In this document: one piece after another, positions 3,352-64,000 of the stretch
Layout: each line of letters starts with the position of its first letter
Numbering within the stretch: the first letter of the stretch is position 1
From: Candidatus Binataceae bacterium
GTDB taxonomy: Bacteria; Desulfobacterota; Binatia; Binatales; Binataceae
DNA length: 64,000 bases
Direction of reading: 5' to 3'
Assembly (NCBI GenBank): GCA_035508495.1
Contig: DATJMX010000030.1
Location: 33,894-97,893, forward strand
Translations under genes and position numbers: made by a program
Notes under the pieces: model-generated
Told to the model about the DNA's origin: nothing
The model's database searches: none
The model's input: only the letters and a program-made list of their open reading frames with translations

Positions 3352-3452
3352 GAAAGCAGAAGGGAAAAAGATCGCCACAAAGGCACAAAGGACACTAAGG
3401 AAGATCCGCCGAAGCGGCGTCGCGCCGCTTCGCTTAGTGCCCTGGTGCCTAA
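3352..3452. repeat. dispersed repeat family D copy
   Basis: CACAAAGGCACAAAGGACACTAAGG ... GAAGCGGCGTCGCGCCGCTTCG ... CTTAGTGCCCTGGTGCCTAAG, an inverted-repeat architecture around a GC hairpin. Confidence 0.6.
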
Positions 3453-9356: not shown

Positions 9357-9516
9357 GCGACACGCCCTGGAATGTGGCGTGAGCCGCGCGGCTACGTGTC
9401 CAACTGCGGGCAGGGACGCCCATAGGGACGCGCACCCCACAGATTCTTAGAGGCATATTGCGCCCGTTCATCAACAGTCACCGCCCAGCGACCATTCGTC
9501 ATGATCGAAAAATTCC

Positions 9517-9592
9517 GTCATCCCCAGCGAAGTCGAGGGATCTTGGAGGCCCCCAAAGGGGCCGGTGCCAAACATCGCGCGCAGCGCTTTCG
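9517..9592. repeat. dispersed repeat family C copy (GTCATCCCCAGCGAAGTCGAGGGATCTTGGAGGCCCCCAAAGGGGCCGGTGCCAAACATCGCGCGCAGCGCTTTCG)
   Basis: Near-identical units at 27101-27178 and 56821-56905, and a partial one at 28998-29013. It creates the spurious N-terminal extension of ORF 9501. Confidence 0.7.
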
Positions 9593-27084: not shown

Positions 27085-27100
27085 TGATGAATGACTCTCT

Positions 27101-27270
27101 GTCATCCCGAGCGAAGTCGAGGGATCTTGGTGGTCCCGAAGGGACTGGTGCCAGACATCGCGCGCAGCGCTTTCATAATGAAAGGGCGCGGTCCCGCCCG
27201 CTGTCCGGAACCGGCCCCTTCGGGACGCTCCGAGATTCTTCGACTCCGCAGACTCCGCTTAGAATGACGG
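27101..27270. repeat. full-length palindromic MITE-like element of repeat family C (two inverted arms)
   Basis: Arm 1 TGTCATCCCGAGCGAAGTCGAGGGATCTTGGTGGTCCCGAAGGGACTGGTGCC...; the reverse complement of the 3' end (CCGTCATTCTAAGCGGAG...CCCGAAGGGGCCGG...) mirrors it. Confidence 0.6.
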
Positions 27271-28897: not shown

Positions 28898-29406
28898 TTC
28901 GGCCCGAACGAATTCAGTGGGACGTCCACCCTACTATTTTTCGAACAGCACCATTGCTCACTGTTTGTCGTGCTGAATGGTTGGCTGCTATCAACTCCGT
29001 CATCCAGAGCGGGCCGCCACGAGCCACCTGCCAGCGTCTTCGATGAAAAGCTCCTTCCACTCGTGTTCTGCCTCCTCATTTCACTCACGAGCACAGGGGC
29101 TGCCGTGCGGAAACTGGAACGAAGTTTCAATACTTTACCGTTTCGGCCCGCTGCGGTTGAAAATGATTTTGCGGGAGGCGATCTATGAAAAAACGCTGGA
29201 CACCTTGGGGCAGTGGTGATGGACACCAGGGTACCGTTCCAGTGGATATCGAAATAGACAATTCGGAAGAAGCTCGCACAAACTTGCAAGCATTCGCTGA
29301 GGTGGGTGTTTCAGCTCTTTATAAAGATCAGCTCTCGTTTTTCAAGAAGCCGCCGGAGCGTGTTGACATAACGAGAGGTCGCTCGACACTTCGACCTTCT
29401 GCGCTT

Positions 29407-31087: not shown

Positions 31088-31200
31088 AAATTCCCGTGCG
31101 GGAAGGGAAAGAGAGTTAGTTTTTTTCTGGATTCGGCTTGAGTAAAAAATCCAGAAACGACCTAAACCCCTAGCCCCTTCCGGCACGGGAAGGGGAACCG
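31088..31200. repeat. MITE-like palindromic element, repeat family B (TTCCCGTGCGGGAAGGGAAAGAGAGTTAG ... spacer hairpin ... ACGACCTAAACCCCTAGCCCCTTCCGGCACGGGAAGGGGA)
   Basis: Inverted arms with an internal TCTGGATT/AATCCAGA hairpin. Related copies at 58364-58471 (full) and 41921-41962 (single arm). Confidence 0.65.
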
Positions 31201-31973
31201 GAAACGGAGCGGCGGCCCGGGCGGGCAAGATGCTTTGAGGCTTCGGCGATGCTTAGGTTCGAGAGGCGCTTTTCGTTGCGTTTGATGAAGGCGCCGACGG
31301 CGCGAGGATCGCTTTTGCTGTATTCGCGCAGGGCCCATCCAATTGCCTTGCGGATGAAGAATTCCTTCTCATGAGCGCGGCGCAGGCAATGAGCGAATAG
31401 CTGCCGCGCGTCGGTCTCGTGCTTGTGCTTCAGATGCGCTATCAGCGCGGTGCGTCGAATCCACATGTCGTCGTCGTCGATCCACTGCTCGATGATCGGC
31501 CTCACTTCTTTGCGATTGGCGCTAAGTACGTTGCCGACGAGATGCGCCGCGATTTCATCGACGAAGTCCCACCACGCTCCCTCGCGAACCATCCGCTCGT
31601 ACAGCGCGAGCGATTCGAGCGCGATGAAATCGCGATGCTGCCGCGCGTAGGCGATCGCGATGTACTGTTCTTCGCGGTGCGGCAACTTCCACAACGCGAG
31701 CACGCCGCTTTCGTATGACTTGCGATCCGTCGGCGCGAATCTGGTGCGTATTTCCTTGATGATCGGTGCGCGCAGCGGCGTCGGCACGCCATAGAAGGTC
31801 TGCGACGTTTTCATATAGGCGGCCATCTGCACGGCCTTCTCAGGATCGGCGAGCCGCTTCAGCTCTGCCGTGACGAATCGCGCGAGCGCGGCGCTCTGGT
31901 CGGTCGATTTCACAGCCTGTTGACTAGCATCCGAGAGCATCCGTGAGCGAGCTTCCGGCTTGCCCGCCAACAT
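31170..31973 (-). CDS. DNA alkylation repair protein (AlkD-like HEAT-repeat glycosylase family)
   Basis: All-helical, with WWDFVDEIAAHLVGNVL, HLKHKHETDARQLF and RKAIGWALREYSKSDP matching the PF08713 pattern. Its last 10 or so codons and its stop lie inside the family B element. Confidence 0.65.
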   Translation of the reverse strand: MLAGKPEARSRMLSDASQQAVKSTDQSAALARFVTAELKRLADPEKAVQMAAYMKTSQTFYGVPTPLRAPIIKEIRTRFAPTDRKSYESGVLALWKLPHREEQYIAIAYARQHRDFIALESLALYERMVREGAWWDFVDEIAAHLVGNVLSANRKEVRPIIEQWIDDDDMWIRRTALIAHLKHKHETDARQLFAHCLRRAHEKEFFIRKAIGWALREYSKSDPRAVGAFIKRNEKRLSNLSIAEASKHLARPGRRSVSGSPSRAGRG

Positions 31974-39088: not shown

Positions 39089-39565
39089 ATGTACGCGAGC
39101 CGCACTACTAAAATCCTGGTCACGATTTTCGCACTTGCGGGATTAGCTGCGCTCGTCGTGCTGACGACATCGCTCCGCGGCGTCGCGATCTTCGAGCCGT
39201 CGGGCTACGTGCTCTATACGACCCTTGATCAAGACGCGTCAGGCCTAAAGGCGAACAATCCTGTCGAGTTGAATGGCGTGCTCGTCGGCAAGGTTCTCTC
39301 GGTTCGCCTCAAAGACCTGCGTACGCATCTGGCGCTCCTTATCGACGATGGTGTTCGGATCAATCGGTGCGCAACGGTGAGTCTCAAGACGGAAGACAGC
39401 GTGTTAGTGACGAAGTTCGTTTCGATCGAAAGCCAATCGAACGGGCCGCCACTTATGGCGCACGATACGATCGGCGGGTGTCACGGGCCCGTTGTACTGG
39501 AGCAGGCGATCGGCGCCTATGGGCCCCACGTTGAGCAACATTCGAGCCTGCGACGCGATAGCTAG
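39089..39565 (+). CDS. divergent MlaD paralogue (MCE-domain protein), upstream copy of a tandem duplication
   Basis: Shares MYASRTT...IFALAGLAAL and the MCE-domain N-half with the next gene. The first 21 nt of the two genes are identical (ATGTACGCGAGCCGCACTAC) and the C-terminus has diverged. Confidence 0.55.
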   Translation: MYASRTTKILVTIFALAGLAALVVLTTSLRGVAIFEPSGYVLYTTLDQDASGLKANNPVELNGVLVGKVLSVRLKDLRTHLALLIDDGVRINRCATVSLKTEDSVLVTKFVSIESQSNGPPLMAHDTIGGCHGPVVLEQAIGAYGPHVEQHSSLRRDS

Positions 39566-39583: not shown

Positions 39584-40186
39584 ATGTACGCGAGCCGCAC
39601 TACACAGTTCCTGGTTGGGATCTTCGCGCTGATCGGAGTCGCGGCGCTTATTGTGCTGTCGATCACGCTCGGCAAGGTGCAGATCTTCGCGCCGCCGGGC
39701 TACGTTCTCTATGCCAACTTCGACAATATCTCGGGGCTCAAGGTCGGCGATTCGGTGGACCTTGCCGGCGTGCATATCGGCAAGGTCGCAAGTGTCAGGC
39801 TGAAGGATTTGCGCGCACACGTGACGCTGTTTATCGACCGCGGCGTCGACATCGATAAGGACGCGATCGCCGGCATCAAGACCGAAGGTCTGCTCGGCAA
39901 CAAATACGTATCGATCGCGCTCGGGCCGAGCGACAAGATGCTGACCGATCACGATACGATCCGGCAGACCGAATCAGCCTTCGTGCTCGAGGATGCGATT
40001 GGAACATTGATCAACAACCTCGGTTCGGGCGGGAGCAAGGACTGCAAGGACAAGGATTCCGACAAGCAGGCGAGCAGCGGCGGCCCGGCGTCGGGCGACG
40101 ATATCAGCCTGCCACCCGGCGTCGCCGATTCCAAACCTTCGCCCGCGGCCAAGCCGTCTGCGGCGTCGAAGCCCGGCCAGAAGTGA
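39584..40186 (+). CDS. mlaD: MlaD (MCE-domain periplasmic substrate-binding component) with Lys/Pro/Ala-rich tail
   Basis: MCE domain with GLKVGDSVDLAGVHIGKVASVRL...IKTEGLLGNKYVSIALG. Confidence 0.8.
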   Translation: MYASRTTQFLVGIFALIGVAALIVLSITLGKVQIFAPPGYVLYANFDNISGLKVGDSVDLAGVHIGKVASVRLKDLRAHVTLFIDRGVDIDKDAIAGIKTEGLLGNKYVSIALGPSDKMLTDHDTIRQTESAFVLEDAIGTLINNLGSGGSKDCKDKDSDKQASSGGPASGDDISLPPGVADSKPSPAAKPSAASKPGQK

Positions 40187-41920: not shown

Positions 41921-41962
41921 TTCCCTTCCCGGTGCGGGAAGGGGACAGGGGTTAGGTCGTCT
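41921..41962. repeat. single-arm copy of repeat family B (TTCCCTTCCCGGTGCGGGAAGGGGACAGGGGTTAGGTCGTCT)
   Basis: Matches the arms of the elements at 31088-31200 and 58364-58471. Confidence 0.55.
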
Positions 41963-42023
41963 GTCTTGATTCTGACGGAAGGAAGACTCTCGGATTAGTC
42001 CGCTGACAAAGGGAGGCCGTCAA

Positions 42024-44112: not shown

Positions 44113-44350
44113 TGAATAACCTCGCCCGCAAAGCGGGAGAGGTCGGATGGCGAGGAGCTTGAGATGTCTGAGTTCAAGCTGCTTGCCATCCGGGCGAGGG
44201 TGCAGCGGCGGGAGCGTGCAGGAACTTCTCGCTGCTAACATTCTGCCAGCTTCGAACGCCGCACCCTCACCCGCACGTCACGGCGCATGCGAAAAAAACG
44301 CAACCGCTGCGCCGCGCGACCTCTCCCGCGATGCGGGCGAGGTTATTTGG
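44113..44350. mobile_element. 238-bp MITE-like element (family A) with about 33-bp terminal inverted repeats, inserted between the LLM oxidoreductase and obg
   Basis: Left end TGAATAACCTCGCCCGCAAAGCGGGAGAGGTCG; right end CGACCTCTCCCGCGATGCGGGCGAGGTTATTTGG, whose reverse complement is CCAAATAACCTCGCCCGCATCGCGGGAGAGGTCG. A collapsed copy sits at 14997-15048. Confidence 0.65.
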
Positions 44351-56820: not shown

Positions 56821-56930
56821 GTCATCCAGAGCGGTGACCGCGAAGGATCTCGGAGGCCCCGAAGGGGCCGGCACCGGTAAGCGCGCGAAGCGCTTTCCTT
56901 AAGCGCGATCTATCGCGAGAAAACGCTTAA
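56821..56930. repeat. repeat family C copy (CGTCATCCAGAGCGGTGACCGCGAAGGATCTCGGAGGCCCCGAAGGGGCCGGCACCGG...) with CTTAAGCG/CGCTTAAG inverted tail
   Basis: Matches 9517-9592 and 27101-27270; its 5' end matches the partial copy at 28998-29013. Confidence 0.6.
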
Positions 56931-58363: not shown

Positions 58364-58471
58364 CTTCCCTTCCAGTGCAGGAAGGGAAAGAGGGTTAGGT
58401 CGTCTCTTTTTCTGAAAAGATCTCAGACAAACGACCTAACCCCCAGCCCCTTCCCGCATCAGGACGGGGGG
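58364..58471. repeat. MITE-like palindromic element, repeat family B, full copy
   Basis: CTTCCCTTCCAGTGCAGGAAGGGAAAGAGGGTTAGGTCGTCT, a spacer, then ACGACCTAACCCCCAGCCCCTTCCCGCATCAGGACGGGGGGG. Confidence 0.65.
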
Positions 58472-60352: not shown

Positions 60353-60470
60353 AAAAGCAGAAGCAGTTACCACCAAGGCACGAAGACACTAAGCGAAGCG
60401 GCGCAGCGCCGCTTCGTTTATTACCTTACTGACTTTCTGCCTTCGTGCCTTTGTGGTTCTCTGCCTGCCT
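60353..60470. repeat. dispersed repeat family D, best-preserved copy (ACCAAGGCACGAAGACACTAAG + GCGAAGCGGCGCAGCGCCGCTTCG + inverted CCTTCGTGCCTTTGTGGTT)
   Basis: Inverted flanks around a 10-bp GC stem, located at the 3' end of the methyltransferase gene. Confidence 0.6.
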
Positions 60471-61631: not shown

Positions 61632-61826
61632 ATGGTGAAGAACGAAAGCAGTCGTGTCCTGACGGTCAAAGAACTGTCTGATTATTTGAAAGTGCATCCA
61701 TCGACGATCTACCGGCAGCTCAAGCGTGGTCGTCTTCCGGCGTTCAAAGTCGGCAGTGACTGGCGGTTTAATATCGAATCGATCGATCGCTGGCGCCTGG
61801 AACAGGACAGCTTCAAGGCGCTGTAA
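61632..61826 (+). CDS. small HTH_17 / excisionase-family DNA-binding protein (paralogue of 21054-21248)
   Basis: LTVKELSDYLKVHPSTIYRQLKRGRLPAFKVGSDWRFNIESIDRW; GAGGAGG RBS. Confidence 0.55.
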   Translation: MVKNESSRVLTVKELSDYLKVHPSTIYRQLKRGRLPAFKVGSDWRFNIESIDRWRLEQDSFKAL

Positions 61827-61867
61827 ACTGCGGGGCTGGGGTGAAGGGGGATGTGGCAAAGGGGAGT

Positions 61868-61920
61868 GTGGCCACGCGCGGGGTGCGGATGACGCTCCCC
61901 GCCGCGGCCACCGTTTTTTC
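61868..61920 (+). terminator. terminator-like imperfect GC hairpin plus T-run after the HTH gene
   Basis: GTGGCCACGCGCGGGG...CCCCGCCGCGGCCACCGTTTTTTC. Confidence 0.4.
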
Positions 61921-62118
61921 TGCAAGGAAGCGCGGCGGAAGCGCGAAGCGGTCCGAGGTGATTTGGCCCCCAAAAACCCCTTTTTTGCCCTAAACCATGT
62001 TGAGGGTATCGCCAGTCATTTGAAGTGATTGGCTGCGACTTACTCCGAGCCTTCGCGGCAGCCGCTCAGGATGACGGATTCGATCGCAGCGATAGGATCA
62101 GACGATAGAGTCATCTCC

Positions 62119-62192
62119 AAAAAAATACAGTGGGGTGGGCGTCCCTGCCCGCCATTAAGATGGCGCGCTGCGCGCCTTCGATGGCTGTGAAA
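62119..62192. repeat. repeat family F copy 1 (GGTGGGCGTCCCTGCCCGCCATTAAGATGGCGCGCTGCGCGCCTTCGATGGCTGTGAAA)
   Basis: About 75-bp direct repeat with two internal palindromes (GGGCGTCCCTGCCC; GGCGCGCTGCGCGCC). The second copy is at 62871-62946. Confidence 0.6.
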
Positions 62193-62361
62193 TCTAGCGC
62201 GAAGACGACCGCGCTCGATCAACGGCCACCCAAGGCCGCACCCGCTAACGGTCTTCCTCAACCTCGTCAGCGAGCTTTAGGAGCGATGGGCTTAGGCTGA
62301 ATTGACGTAGAAAGGGCAGTTTACTAACTGACGGCATTAGCTCACACGCTGGAGGGGGAAC

Positions 62362-62865
62362 ATGTCAAAACCAGGTGCCCTAATGTTGGTAGCACTTGCC
62401 GTTGGTGGAATTGCATTTACACCGATCGCTCATGCCCAGACCGACGGTGACAAGGCGGCGGTCAAGACACTCAACCAACAGATCATGGCCGGCTTCAACC
62501 ATCACGACGCCTCAGCAATCATGGCTTTCTACTCCAATGACCCGGACGCGATCTTCTTCGAGGACACTATCCCACTTCAGTTCAACAAGGCGGCGCTAAT
62601 CAAGGTTACTACGGACTTCTTCAAGTCCGCATCCGATTTTCAGGCCACCATGGACTCGTACGATTCGGTCGTAAGCGGCGACCTGGCCGCCGTGCATTAC
62701 GTCATTCGGAACAGTTGGACCGACAAGAACGGTAAGCATTCGCAAACCAGCCGCTACACGCAGATTGATAAGAAGGAGGGCGGCAAGTGGCTCGTATGGC
62801 ATGAGCATTATTCCGTGCCGTTCGACCCTGCGACCGGCAAAGCTGTGTTCAACGCAGCGCCGTAG
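62362..62865 (+). CDS. secreted SnoaL-like/DUF4440 (NTF2-fold) protein
   Basis: Signal peptide MSKPGALMLVALAVGGIAFTPIAHAQ, then NTF2-like GDKAAVKTLNQQIMAGFNHHDASAIMAFYSNDPDAIFFED...GKWLVWHEHYS. Visibly lower GC than its surroundings. Confidence 0.55.
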   Translation: MSKPGALMLVALAVGGIAFTPIAHAQTDGDKAAVKTLNQQIMAGFNHHDASAIMAFYSNDPDAIFFEDTIPLQFNKAALIKVTTDFFKSASDFQATMDSYDSVVSGDLAAVHYVIRNSWTDKNGKHSQTSRYTQIDKKEGGKWLVWHEHYSVPFDPATGKAVFNAAP

Positions 62866-62870
62866 TTCTG

Positions 62871-62946
62871 AAAAATCGGTGGGGCGGGCGTCCCTGCCCG
62901 CGGTTAAGATGGCGCGCTGCGCCGCCTTCCATGGCTGTGAAAAAAG
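62871..62946. repeat. repeat family F copy 2
   Basis: GGTGGGGCGGGCGTCCCTGCCCGCGGTTAAGATGGCGCGCTGCGCCGCCTTCCATGGCTGTGAAAAAA, a direct repeat of 62119-62192. Confidence 0.6.
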
Positions 62947-63050
62947 GTCGCGCCGAGAGGACTCCGCGCAATCAGTGGCCGGCTAGGATGCCCGCCCTAC
63001 TAGATTTTGAAAGCATCAGAAGCTGCGAACGACGCGATGCAAATTCGATG

Positions 63051-64000
63051 CTACGGCGCGCGACGCGCCTCTCGATCTCCCACGCCTATATAGTCAAATG
63101 CCAGCCAGCCGCGCAGCGGATCTACGCGGCTTACCTGCACGAGGATCTCCGCCTGGTTCGATAGCGATGGAGCGTTGTGCAGTGTGCCGCGGACTGCGTA
63201 GTCAATTAGCTCGGCGCTGGCGCCATCGCGCGTGGCCCAGGCCTTGAGCGGCACTCCGATGCTGTTTTCTTCGAGATAGCGCAGCGTCCAGTAGCGTTTT
63301 GCGCGGCGCTCAAGTTCGCGGAATGAATCCTCGGCGCTCTCGGCGCCTGCGAGCACCGCCAGCAATTCGTCGGCGTTGTATGGCGCCGGCTCGCCCGCCA
63401 GCGCGGCCAGGATTTGGCGCTGCAGCACCAGGTCGGCGTAGCGCCGAATCGGCGAGCTGAGCTGGGCGTAGTAATCGAGTCCGATTCCCGCGTGATATTC
63501 GGGATAGAGCGATAGCCGCGGCCGCTGCATCGCATAGTCGAGCCCGGTTTGCGGCTGGACGCGGTAAATGATCGGGATGCGATTCTCTGCCGCATAGCGG
63601 GCCGCGACGAAATTGCTAAGCACCATGAACTCCGCGACCAGCACGCGCGCGGGCGATCCGGAGTCGAGGATCTGAATTTCGATCTCGCGCCCGTTGCGAA
63701 CGCGAATCTTGGACTCGCGCCGCTGCGTGAGCATCGCTCCCGCGCGCCGCCGAATCTCCCGCATCTGCATCGCCATGCTGAACAGGCGCCGCACGGCGCC
63801 AGCCGCGTTCGAGTTCTCACCCTCGTTGGCGAGCATCGCATTGGCGCGGTCGTAGTCGACACGCTCGACGATCGGAATCGTTGCCGGATAGATCGACGAT
63901 TTCAGCAGTTCGCCTTCAGGCGAAAGCGTCACGTCGGTCGTCAGCACCGGCCGCTCCCGCCCCGCGAGCAGACTGGCAGTGTCGCAGCCGAGGACGTCGG
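63051..64000 (-). CDS. RNB-domain 3'-5' exoribonuclease (RNase R / RNase II family), C-terminal part; gene continues beyond the window end
   Basis: Minus-strand ORF open to position 64000. RNB signature SSPIRRYADLVLQRQ and a downstream S1-like tail. Confidence 0.75.
   Translation of the reverse strand, partial: DVLGCDTASLLAGRERPVLTTDVTLSPEGELLKSSIYPATIPIVERVDYDRANAMLANEGENSNAAGAVRRLFSMAMQMREIRRRAGAMLTQRRESKIRVRNGREIEIQILDSGSPARVLVAEFMVLSNFVAARYAAENRIPIIYRVQPQTGLDYAMQRPRLSLYPEYHAGIGLDYYAQLSSPIRRYADLVLQRQILAALAGEPAPYNADELLAVLAGAESAEDSFRELERRAKRYWTLRYLEENSIGVPLKAWATRDGASAELIDYAVRGTLHNAPSLSNQAEILVQVSRVDPLRGWLAFDYIGVGDREARRAP

Follow-up and report, generated by a model that had tools for sequence, protein, structure and literature searches.

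We analysed a 64,000-nt stretch of DNA (the window) from a Binataceae metagenome-assembled genome (MAG). Towards its right end lie, in this order, an LLM oxidoreductase gene, an HTH_17 gene, a terminator, a first repeat (A), a SnoaL gene, a second repeat (B) and, on the opposite strand, an RNase II gene. The HTH_17 gene (61632–61826, plus strand) encodes a DNA-binding protein and belongs to the conserved core of the locus; it is followed by an intrinsic terminator made up of a hairpin and a T-run (61868–61919, plus strand). The 3' part of the RNase II (RNB) gene (63051–64000, minus strand) runs convergently with SnoaL and forms the right border of the gap. Everything in between, from the HTH_17 terminator to the RNase II stop codon (61920–63050), is a block without counterpart in the closest relatives, and it contains the SnoaL gene (62362–62865, plus strand) as well as the REPIN-type elements A (62121–62247) and B (62871–62999), both on the plus strand. 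The original prediction saw here a visibly AT-rich, secreted NTF2-fold gene with near-identical direct repeats on either side, and proposed a mobile cassette, a product of site-specific recombination or a duplicated structured RNA element. The NTF2-fold assignment held: the 167-aa product matches the SnoaL_3/DUF4440 (NTF2-like) profile of Pfam with E=5e-11, and the ORF also matches SnoaL_2. Judging from the residues, the protein begins with a signal-peptide-like stretch (...IAHA|QT).

The direct repeats around the gene were recovered at the places proposed, both by repeat search and by alignment. The repeat search returned two segments, 62122–62173 against 62871–62922 (52 nt, 88% identity) and 62173–62192 against 62923–62942 (20 nt, 95% identity), with a 1-nt indel between them. 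In a local alignment of A and B, 101 of 123 aligned bases were identical, with an identity of about 92% over the first ~75 bp and about 65–70% over the remaining ~55 bp, so that the length of ~75 bp given earlier describes the high-identity part while the real extent of the repeat is ~128 bp. A 19-mer common to both copies, TTAAGATGGCGCGCTGCGC, has no other site in the window at up to three mismatches, and considering that shuffled sequences would be expected to yield 0.17 such sites, the repeat is not a chance occurrence. Towards its 3' end A also matches 31883–31917 over 35 nt; this second site lies inside an ORF, and we judged the match to be chance.

Both elements open with a short A-run followed by GTGGGG(Y)GGGCGTCCCTGCCCGC. 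This start contains a 23-nt unit built of a GTGG head, a 7-bp GC stem (GGCGGGC/GCCCGCC) and a 6-nt loop (GTCCCT), which in A occupies 62130–62152 (GTGGGGTGGGCGTCCCTGCCCGC) and in B 62879–62901, where it is an exact copy of a 23-mer that recurs across phyla (see more below). The 3' end of B, GGCCGGCTAGGATGCCCGCCCTAC, is a degenerate, inverted version of the same unit (62978–63000, minus strand, GTAGGGCGGGCATCCTAGCCGGC, 5 of 23 positions mismatched) and is the sole further match in the window at up to five mismatches. In minimum free energy (MFE) folds of B as RNA and as DNA, the 5' unit and the inverted 3' unit pair into one long hairpin (RNA MFE −70.4 kcal/mol). The ~75-nt spacer between the two units of B is homologous to the spacer of A, which holds a hairpin of its own, GGCGCGC-T-GCGCGCC; in A the inverted 3' unit has largely decayed, leaving the remnant of a REPIN, with a DNA fold at z=−3.25. 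Of the two palindromes earlier ascribed to each repeat, GGGCGTCCCTGCCC is present in both copies, while GGCGCGCTGCGCGCC is perfect in A only, B having a 1-nt insertion; the second palindrome of that pair sits in the spacer. B begins five nt past the SnoaL stop codon, where SnoaL and RNase II converge, and its hairpin has an A-run on the 5' side and a T-run on the 3' side. A simple terminator scan missed B as well as the evident HTH_17 terminator, its loop-length limit making it blind to such long hairpins.

The anatomy of these units agrees with that of repetitive extragenic palindromes (REPs), in which a terminal GT[AG]G tetranucleotide precedes a short (20–40 bp), GC-rich, imperfect palindrome (PMC3733652); for the terms REP, REPIN and RAYT we follow PMC3733652 and PMC3337134. 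A third member of the family lies at 9370–9440 (minus strand), with a gene for an acyl-CoA dehydrogenase on one side and one for an aldehyde dehydrogenase on the other, which brings the family loci in the window to three, all of them intergenic. It has the same head and hairpin and a 12-nt internal duplication, its downstream sequence is unlike that of A and B, and it lacks the ~50-nt part of the spacer that A and B have in common. It brackets no cassette. The spacer of A and B was found in no other sequence among the ~1.4 Mb that we fetched (blastn-short against all fetched loci). A search of JGI metagenomes with the spacer 19-mer gave no match, which is weak evidence considering that the collection does not include Ga0335076_10246043, a contig bearing the 19-mer.

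The REP unit itself is far more widely distributed. When GTDB genomes, one for each species, were scanned, the exact 23-mer GTGGGGNGGGCGTCCCTGCCCGC occurred in at least 120 stretches. The matches listed represent about 41 assemblies and at least six phyla, megabase-long contigs among them, and their sources included Planctomycetota, Chthonomonadaceae, Desulfobacterota, Binataceae, Pseudomonadota and Chloroflexi, with Desulfomonilaceae, Desulfobaccales and Syntrophobacterales among the groups listed and Binataceae represented by five MAGs. The flanks of these loci are unrelated, and only the 23-nt hairpin is conserved between genomes. Very often, in Binataceae too, the 23-mer forms an inverted doublet with a spacer of variable length, or else it stands in tandem arrays. 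Stem variants in the fetched loci (CGCGGGC, CGCAGGC, GGCGGCC, CCGGGC and others) keep the pairing perfect, with loops of GTCCCT or CTCCGT. The 23-mer was also seen on a single viral contig of IMG/VR. All-vs-all clustering of the ORFs from 120 of these loci, examined for protein families recurring next to the REP, returned housekeeping families only, for example acyl-CoA dehydrogenases.

REP-associated tyrosine transposases (RAYTs), which are usually single-copy, recognise and cleave GT[AG]G-tagged, GC-rich hairpins as single-stranded DNA. By inspecting REP pairs that lie about 0.5 kb apart we located such enzymes next to the 23-mer. In a Planctomycetales MAG (locus L076), a 179-aa ORF (1374–1913) sits between two exact, inverted 23-mers; it matches Pfam Y1_Tnp with 29.8 bits (cut-off 23) and the NCBIfam model REP_Tyr_transpos ('REP-associated tyrosine transposase') with E=4e-22 and 78.6 bits, just below the cut-off of 80. 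A second RAYT (L088), 54% identical to the first, starts directly after a 23-mer. In the complete genome of an isolate, Desulfomonile tiedjei, a RAYT is flanked by GTAGGG-TCCGGC-GTCCCT-GCCGGA, a repeat with the same head and loop as the 23-mer and a compensated stem. The L076 RAYT has 1252 relatives at E<=1e-10, and for many of them the source name is RayT or REP-associated tyrosine transposase; in the best 120 of the 1252, none was recognisable by source name as coming from Binatia. A tblastn search for a RAYT gene found none in the window, in L001 or in the Binataceae loci; of the source genome itself it covered about 84 kb.

Taken with the sequence and position of the units, these results make it very probable that A and B are REP/REPIN elements, that is, non-autonomous miniature mobile elements tagged by GT[AG]G and a GC-rich hairpin which would be spread by RAYTs. 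They resemble the systems already described (REPINs of Pseudomonas fluorescens SBW25, REP/BIME of E. coli with TnpA_REP, and the GTAG REPs of Di Nocera et al. 2013) in the GT[AG]G head with its GC hairpin and in the dispersed, extragenic copies of the family; B, moreover, shares with REPINs the inverted doublet whose two halves and spacer make a long hairpin, and the identical 23-mer flanks RAYTs in two other genomes, as an inverted pair in L076 and singly in L088. There are also differences: the host here is an uncultured Binatia lineage, the head reads GTGG rather than the GTAG of GTAG REPs, the ~75-nt spacer of A and B is long for a REPIN, and of the 3' REP, B keeps a degenerate version and A hardly anything. 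Miniature inverted-repeat transposable elements (MITEs) are likewise small, non-coding, structured, dispersed and non-autonomous, but A and B have no DDE-type terminal inverted repeats and no evident target-site duplication, and their ends are REP hairpins.

We turned to the gene between the repeats by comparing it with its closest homologues, which share 79–80% identity at the protein level and ~80–83% at the nucleotide level over the coding region. These homologues stand in other surroundings: the one in L124 adjoins BAAT/abhydrolase genes, the one in L126 adjoins GFA and SnoaL_2 genes, and a more distant homologue in L127 (60% identity) occupies a third context. None of the three loci has a REP near the SnoaL homologue. 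Nucleotide homology ends with the ORF (62354–62865 in the case of L126). Upstream, at 62300–62332 on the plus strand, the aligned upstream regions of SnoaL homologues from three unrelated contexts revealed a promoter-like motif, ATTGAC...GTTTACTAACTGAC, the form ATTGAC...GTTTACTA being common to the window, L124 and L127; from its sequence, this motif may function as a promoter. It lies between A and the SnoaL start codon, and therefore A is outside the conserved unit of the gene and probably outside its leader.

This arrangement bears on the proposal that the repeats are a duplicated structured RNA, such as a leader with a cis-regulatory role or the gene of an sRNA. Stable folds are indeed predicted (RNA fold of the A core z=−2.5; B −70 kcal/mol), but the fold of the B core alone is no better than that of shuffled sequences (z=−0.68), and A, being upstream of the promoter-like motif, would not be in the SnoaL leader. 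Across genomes only the 23-nt hairpin is kept and the flanks are unrelated. Rfam, too, matched nothing on the repeats, neither at the gathering score over the whole window nor at E<=1 over 61800–63100. We consider an RNA element to be very unlikely.

The gene is indeed AT-richer than its neighbours, as first described: 19 called genes around it average 0.617 in GC content (sd 0.037), while the gene itself has 0.546 (z=−1.9), and its GC3 is 0.69 against 0.76 (z=−1.6). The further claim that it is compositionally foreign was not established: the neighbouring HTH_17 gene is lower still (GC 0.518, GC3 0.646), and the homologues are equally GC-poor, the one in L124, on another Binatia contig, showing the same offset (0.531 against 0.612). 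Since homologues on other Binatia contigs have it too, the low GC belongs to the gene family as such, residing largely in first codon positions and hence in amino-acid composition, and does not clearly mark the gene as a recent foreign arrival.

One form of the cassette proposal is that the gene is an integron-type cassette, or another product of site-specific recombination, with the repeats as attC or attL/attR sites. A single short ORF with an imperfect palindrome of ~60–130 bp directly behind it is what an integron cassette and its attC would look like, and direct repeats do flank the ORF. At the same time, the core sites RYYYAAC/GTTRRRY are absent from the ends of A and B (the sole candidate with GTT in B, GTTAAGA, fails at the final Y, and A has ATTAAGA), so that the R''/R' cores of an attC are missing. 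No integrase (intI among them), tyrosine or serine recombinase or transposase is present among the genes called in the 10 kb to the left and to the right, and the window has no tRNA or tmRNA gene as integration target. There is one gene rather than an array, and, unlike an integron cassette, SnoaL has its own promoter-like motif. The repeat core, moreover, is a RAYT-associated REP that is found in many phyla without cassettes, and so is not private to this gene. What was found is essentially what the original prediction had named as speaking against it: a repeat widespread without cassettes, and a gene of family-typical composition within the local range. Such a recombination product appears extremely improbable, and neither A nor B is a recombination site delimiting a cassette; the parts of the mobile-cassette reading that survive are that the repeats derive from mobile DNA and that the gene is an insertion specific to the lineage.

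The gene does behave as an insertion when the locus is compared with its relatives. With the HTH_17 protein as query, a search of metagenomes yielded 80 orthologous Binatia loci, in 46 of which a convergent RNase II gene stands right behind HTH_17, across a gap of 49–723 bp (1825 bp in one). No SnoaL homologue is present in any of these 46 syntenic loci, showing that the gene is lineage-specific. RNase II homologues place the source organism as a relative of Candidatus Binatus, at ~67% identity, and the nearest relatives are at 92% (L128) and 80% (L129), two loci where the HTH_17 protein is identical to that of the window and the terminator is conserved. In L128, the closest relative, the gap is filled by a Gp49/HTH_37 toxin-antitoxin pair, and in L129 it measures 252 bp and has neither a gene nor a REP. 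Against these two, only 61847–61919 of the window, the HTH_17 terminator, aligns, the gaps being too diverged for insertion borders to be placed. The long gap of 1825 bp (L163, RNase II identity 57%) has an insertion sequence (IS) remnant in the form of a frameshifted rve-type transposase, and that of L137 (74%) has a REP variant in the same orientation plus two other types of miniature repeat. This varied cargo, together with the relatives that lack SnoaL, shows that the HTH_17/RNase II gap is a permissive, recurrently used insertion site, which has taken up toxin-antitoxin genes, IS elements, miniature repeats and small accessory genes. In the source lineage, both SnoaL and the REPINs are derived.

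How the gene and the two repeats came together is less certain. We think it probable that A and B belong to one REPIN subfamily and occupy the spacers beside an accessory gene that was acquired independently, in a permissive gap. SnoaL, with its own promoter, would have arrived by an unrelated insertion or recombination, and the REPINs would have landed separately or one of them would have been copied locally from the other. Once in place, B would probably also act as a bidirectional terminator, or as an mRNA stabiliser, for the transcripts of SnoaL and RNase II. The family has only three loci in 74 kb, of which two are neighbours that point the same way and have in common the ~50-nt spacer part that the third lacks, and a rough estimate, with three elements among ~70 intergenic gaps, puts independent insertion into adjacent spacers at ~10%; a common local history of A and B is therefore probable.

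Taken further, this shared history could mean that a single REPIN in the gap was doubled in cis, by replication slippage, by unequal recombination or during insertion of the SnoaL segment, and that the copies then diverged, the direct repeat being an insertion scar. The adjacency and common orientation of the copies, the spacer that is restricted to A and B among the ~1.4 Mb fetched, and the lone REP variant in the same gap and orientation of L137 would all fit such an event. However, both copies are whole ~128-bp elements, unlike a partial target-site duplication, and they are 18% diverged overall, yet the locus around them is 100% identical between samples. We regard this duplication as a realistic but distinctly less likely course of events than acquisition of the gene independently of the repeats.

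A different relation between repeats and gene would exist if the two REP hairpins, lying in the same direction, acted like the subterminal hairpins at the left and right ends (LE and RE) of IS200/IS605 elements, so that a RAYT acting in trans could cut out and paste the promoter and SnoaL in single-stranded form. The 'cassette' would then be real, though of the peel-and-paste kind. A and B do have the same orientation and a common REP and spacer, as the same-orientation hairpins around the cargo of an IS608-type element would; RAYTs are HUH/Y1 enzymes of the IS200/IS605 superfamily (PMC3733652), and the bracketed block is missing from all 46 syntenic relatives. Two contigs from other samples (L003 and L132) end exactly at A, which could reflect heterogeneity of the population at that point, but short-read assemblers are expected to break contigs at repeats. 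The exact SnoaL protein is present on four contigs from four samples or runs (ENA ERZ27256562 and ERZ27256474, Logan SRR8879133, JGI 3300032955), all at one and the same locus, the window itself belonging to a soil-metagenome contig of 117,925 bp, and neither a second copy of the unit elsewhere nor an alternative allele was seen. The 79–83% identical homologues have no REPs and their homology ends with the ORF, while the lineage-specific block (61920–63050) reaches 200 bp past A. A and B are complete REPIN-like units rather than half-sites, and the flanks are not LE/RE ends. Neither TnpA nor TnpB is encoded between them, where the only ORF matching a family is SnoaL_3, and tblastn found no local RAYT. 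A RAYT-mobilisable composite is, in our analysis, unlikely.

On the boldest reading, which we consider unlikely, the promoter and SnoaL would nevertheless be cargo moved by a RAYT in trans, and a domesticated or selfish REP system would occasionally capture and relocate host genes. Independently of this, the identity of the 23-mer in at least six phyla, next to RAYTs that are 54% identical, would mean horizontal spread of this REP/RAYT lineage or a very strong constraint on the sequence. Either outcome would oppose the mostly vertical picture of REPIN-RAYT evolution, the families in the REPIN literature being mainly vertical and lineage-specific. This identity across phyla, which differs from the pattern described there, is the only part of our results that might interest specialists in REPIN-RAYT evolution.

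On the favoured reading, that of REPINs beside an independently acquired gene, the practical consequence is one of annotation: the direct repeats by the small gene in this high-GC soil MAG are to be labelled as REP/REPIN elements and not as cassette sites. The elements document a REP/REPIN family in the uncultured class Binatia. The REPIN-RAYT kind is already well known and the Binatia family is a new member of it; we know of no REP family described for Binatia, and our search of the literature for the core REP sequence returned nothing. That contigs of other samples end at A is likewise accounted for by the REP repeats.

Exact matches to the 23-mer REP unit GTGGGGNGGGCGTCCCTGCCCGC, which in the window lies at 62130-62152 and 62879-62901, within the two REPINs that bracket the SnoaL gene (REPIN A upstream, REPIN B downstream), were present in at least about 41 assemblies, which span six or more phyla (GTDB loci L004-L123). 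The matches listed there come from MAGs only, with Mb-long contigs among them. At two of these loci (L076 and L088), where a REP-associated tyrosine transposase (RAYT) sits beside the unit, the RAYTs share 54% identity with each other, yet both are flanked by the identical REP unit. An exact unit in at least six phyla, together with RAYTs this divergent, would not be expected if REPINs and RAYTs were inherited mainly vertically. We also saw that in a Chthonomonadaceae MAG (CAZFLM01, Armatimonadota; L039, L098, L069, L010, L037, L043) the same unit occurs within tandem arrays, with periods of ~39, 72, 114 and 142 bp, and that these loci contain no inverted doublets of it.

Two contigs from other samples, L003 (681 bp) and L132 (1683 bp), both begin 141 nt before the SnoaL ATG, which corresponds to window position ~62221 and lies in the 3' tail of REPIN A, where conservation is weak; the far end of L003 falls inside the REP of B. 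These ends reflect assembly fragmentation, the contigs having broken because of the repeats.

The space between the convergent HTH_17 and RNase II genes, which in the window holds the REPINs and the SnoaL gene, has repeatedly received insertions in Binatia. In relatives it contains a Gp49/HTH_37 toxin-antitoxin pair (L128:10026-10677), a frameshifted rve-type IS (L163:4187-6010), miniature repeats of three kinds with a small signal-peptide ORF (L137:563-1286), or other genes spanning more than 4 kb (L145:4193-8192). The 64-aa HTH_17 protein (61632-61919 including the terminator) is a core regulator and not the prophage excisionase that its family name could imply. Its sequence is unchanged (100% identity) even in relatives where RNase II has dropped to 80% identity, and the terminator of its gene is conserved in the relatives with the identical protein.

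Upstream of the SnoaL homologues there is a promoter-like motif (ATTGAC, followed ~13 nt further on by GTTTACTA), found in the window at 62300-62332 and, with approximate coordinates read from the upstream regions, at L124:2945-2975 and L127:1330-1360. Its conservation in three unrelated genomic contexts suggests that the SnoaL family moves together with a regulatory signal of its own. A block of abhydrolase, adh_short, PKD and carbonic-anhydrase genes adjoins the 79% SnoaL homologue in L124 and also follows RNase II in L131 and L133, which hints at rearrangements connecting the two neighbourhoods. In the latter two, which are more distant relatives (RNase II 76-77% identical), a small unannotated ORF comes after RNase II (L131:10108-10470, L133:8094-8435).

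The window holds other repeats as well. A second intergenic family of ~80 nt (TCCGTCATCCCnAGCGAAGTCGAGGGATCT...CGCGCGCAGCGCTTTC) has copies at 9514-9591, 27098-27174 and 56821-56897 (and 28976-29012), one of them directly adjoining the third REP copy. A third, short family (CCCTTCCCGGTGCGGGAAGGGGACAGGGGTTAGGTCGTCT) lies at 31091-31128, 41923-41967 and 58367-58410, the last forming an inverted pair with 58425-58468; units related to both families are present in L137. The fourth, at 2226-2259, 3409-3450 and 60376-60417 in both orientations, combines a perfectly paired GC hairpin (CGAAGCGGCGCAGCGCCGCTTCG) and a conserved tail (CTTAGTG...), and looks terminator-like or REP-like. Finally, 39089-39228 and 39584-39723 form a direct repeat of 140 nt, with 73% identity and a distance of 495 bp, and 44115-44161 and 44301-44347 form an inverted repeat of 47 nt, with 81% complementarity and a distance of 139 nt.
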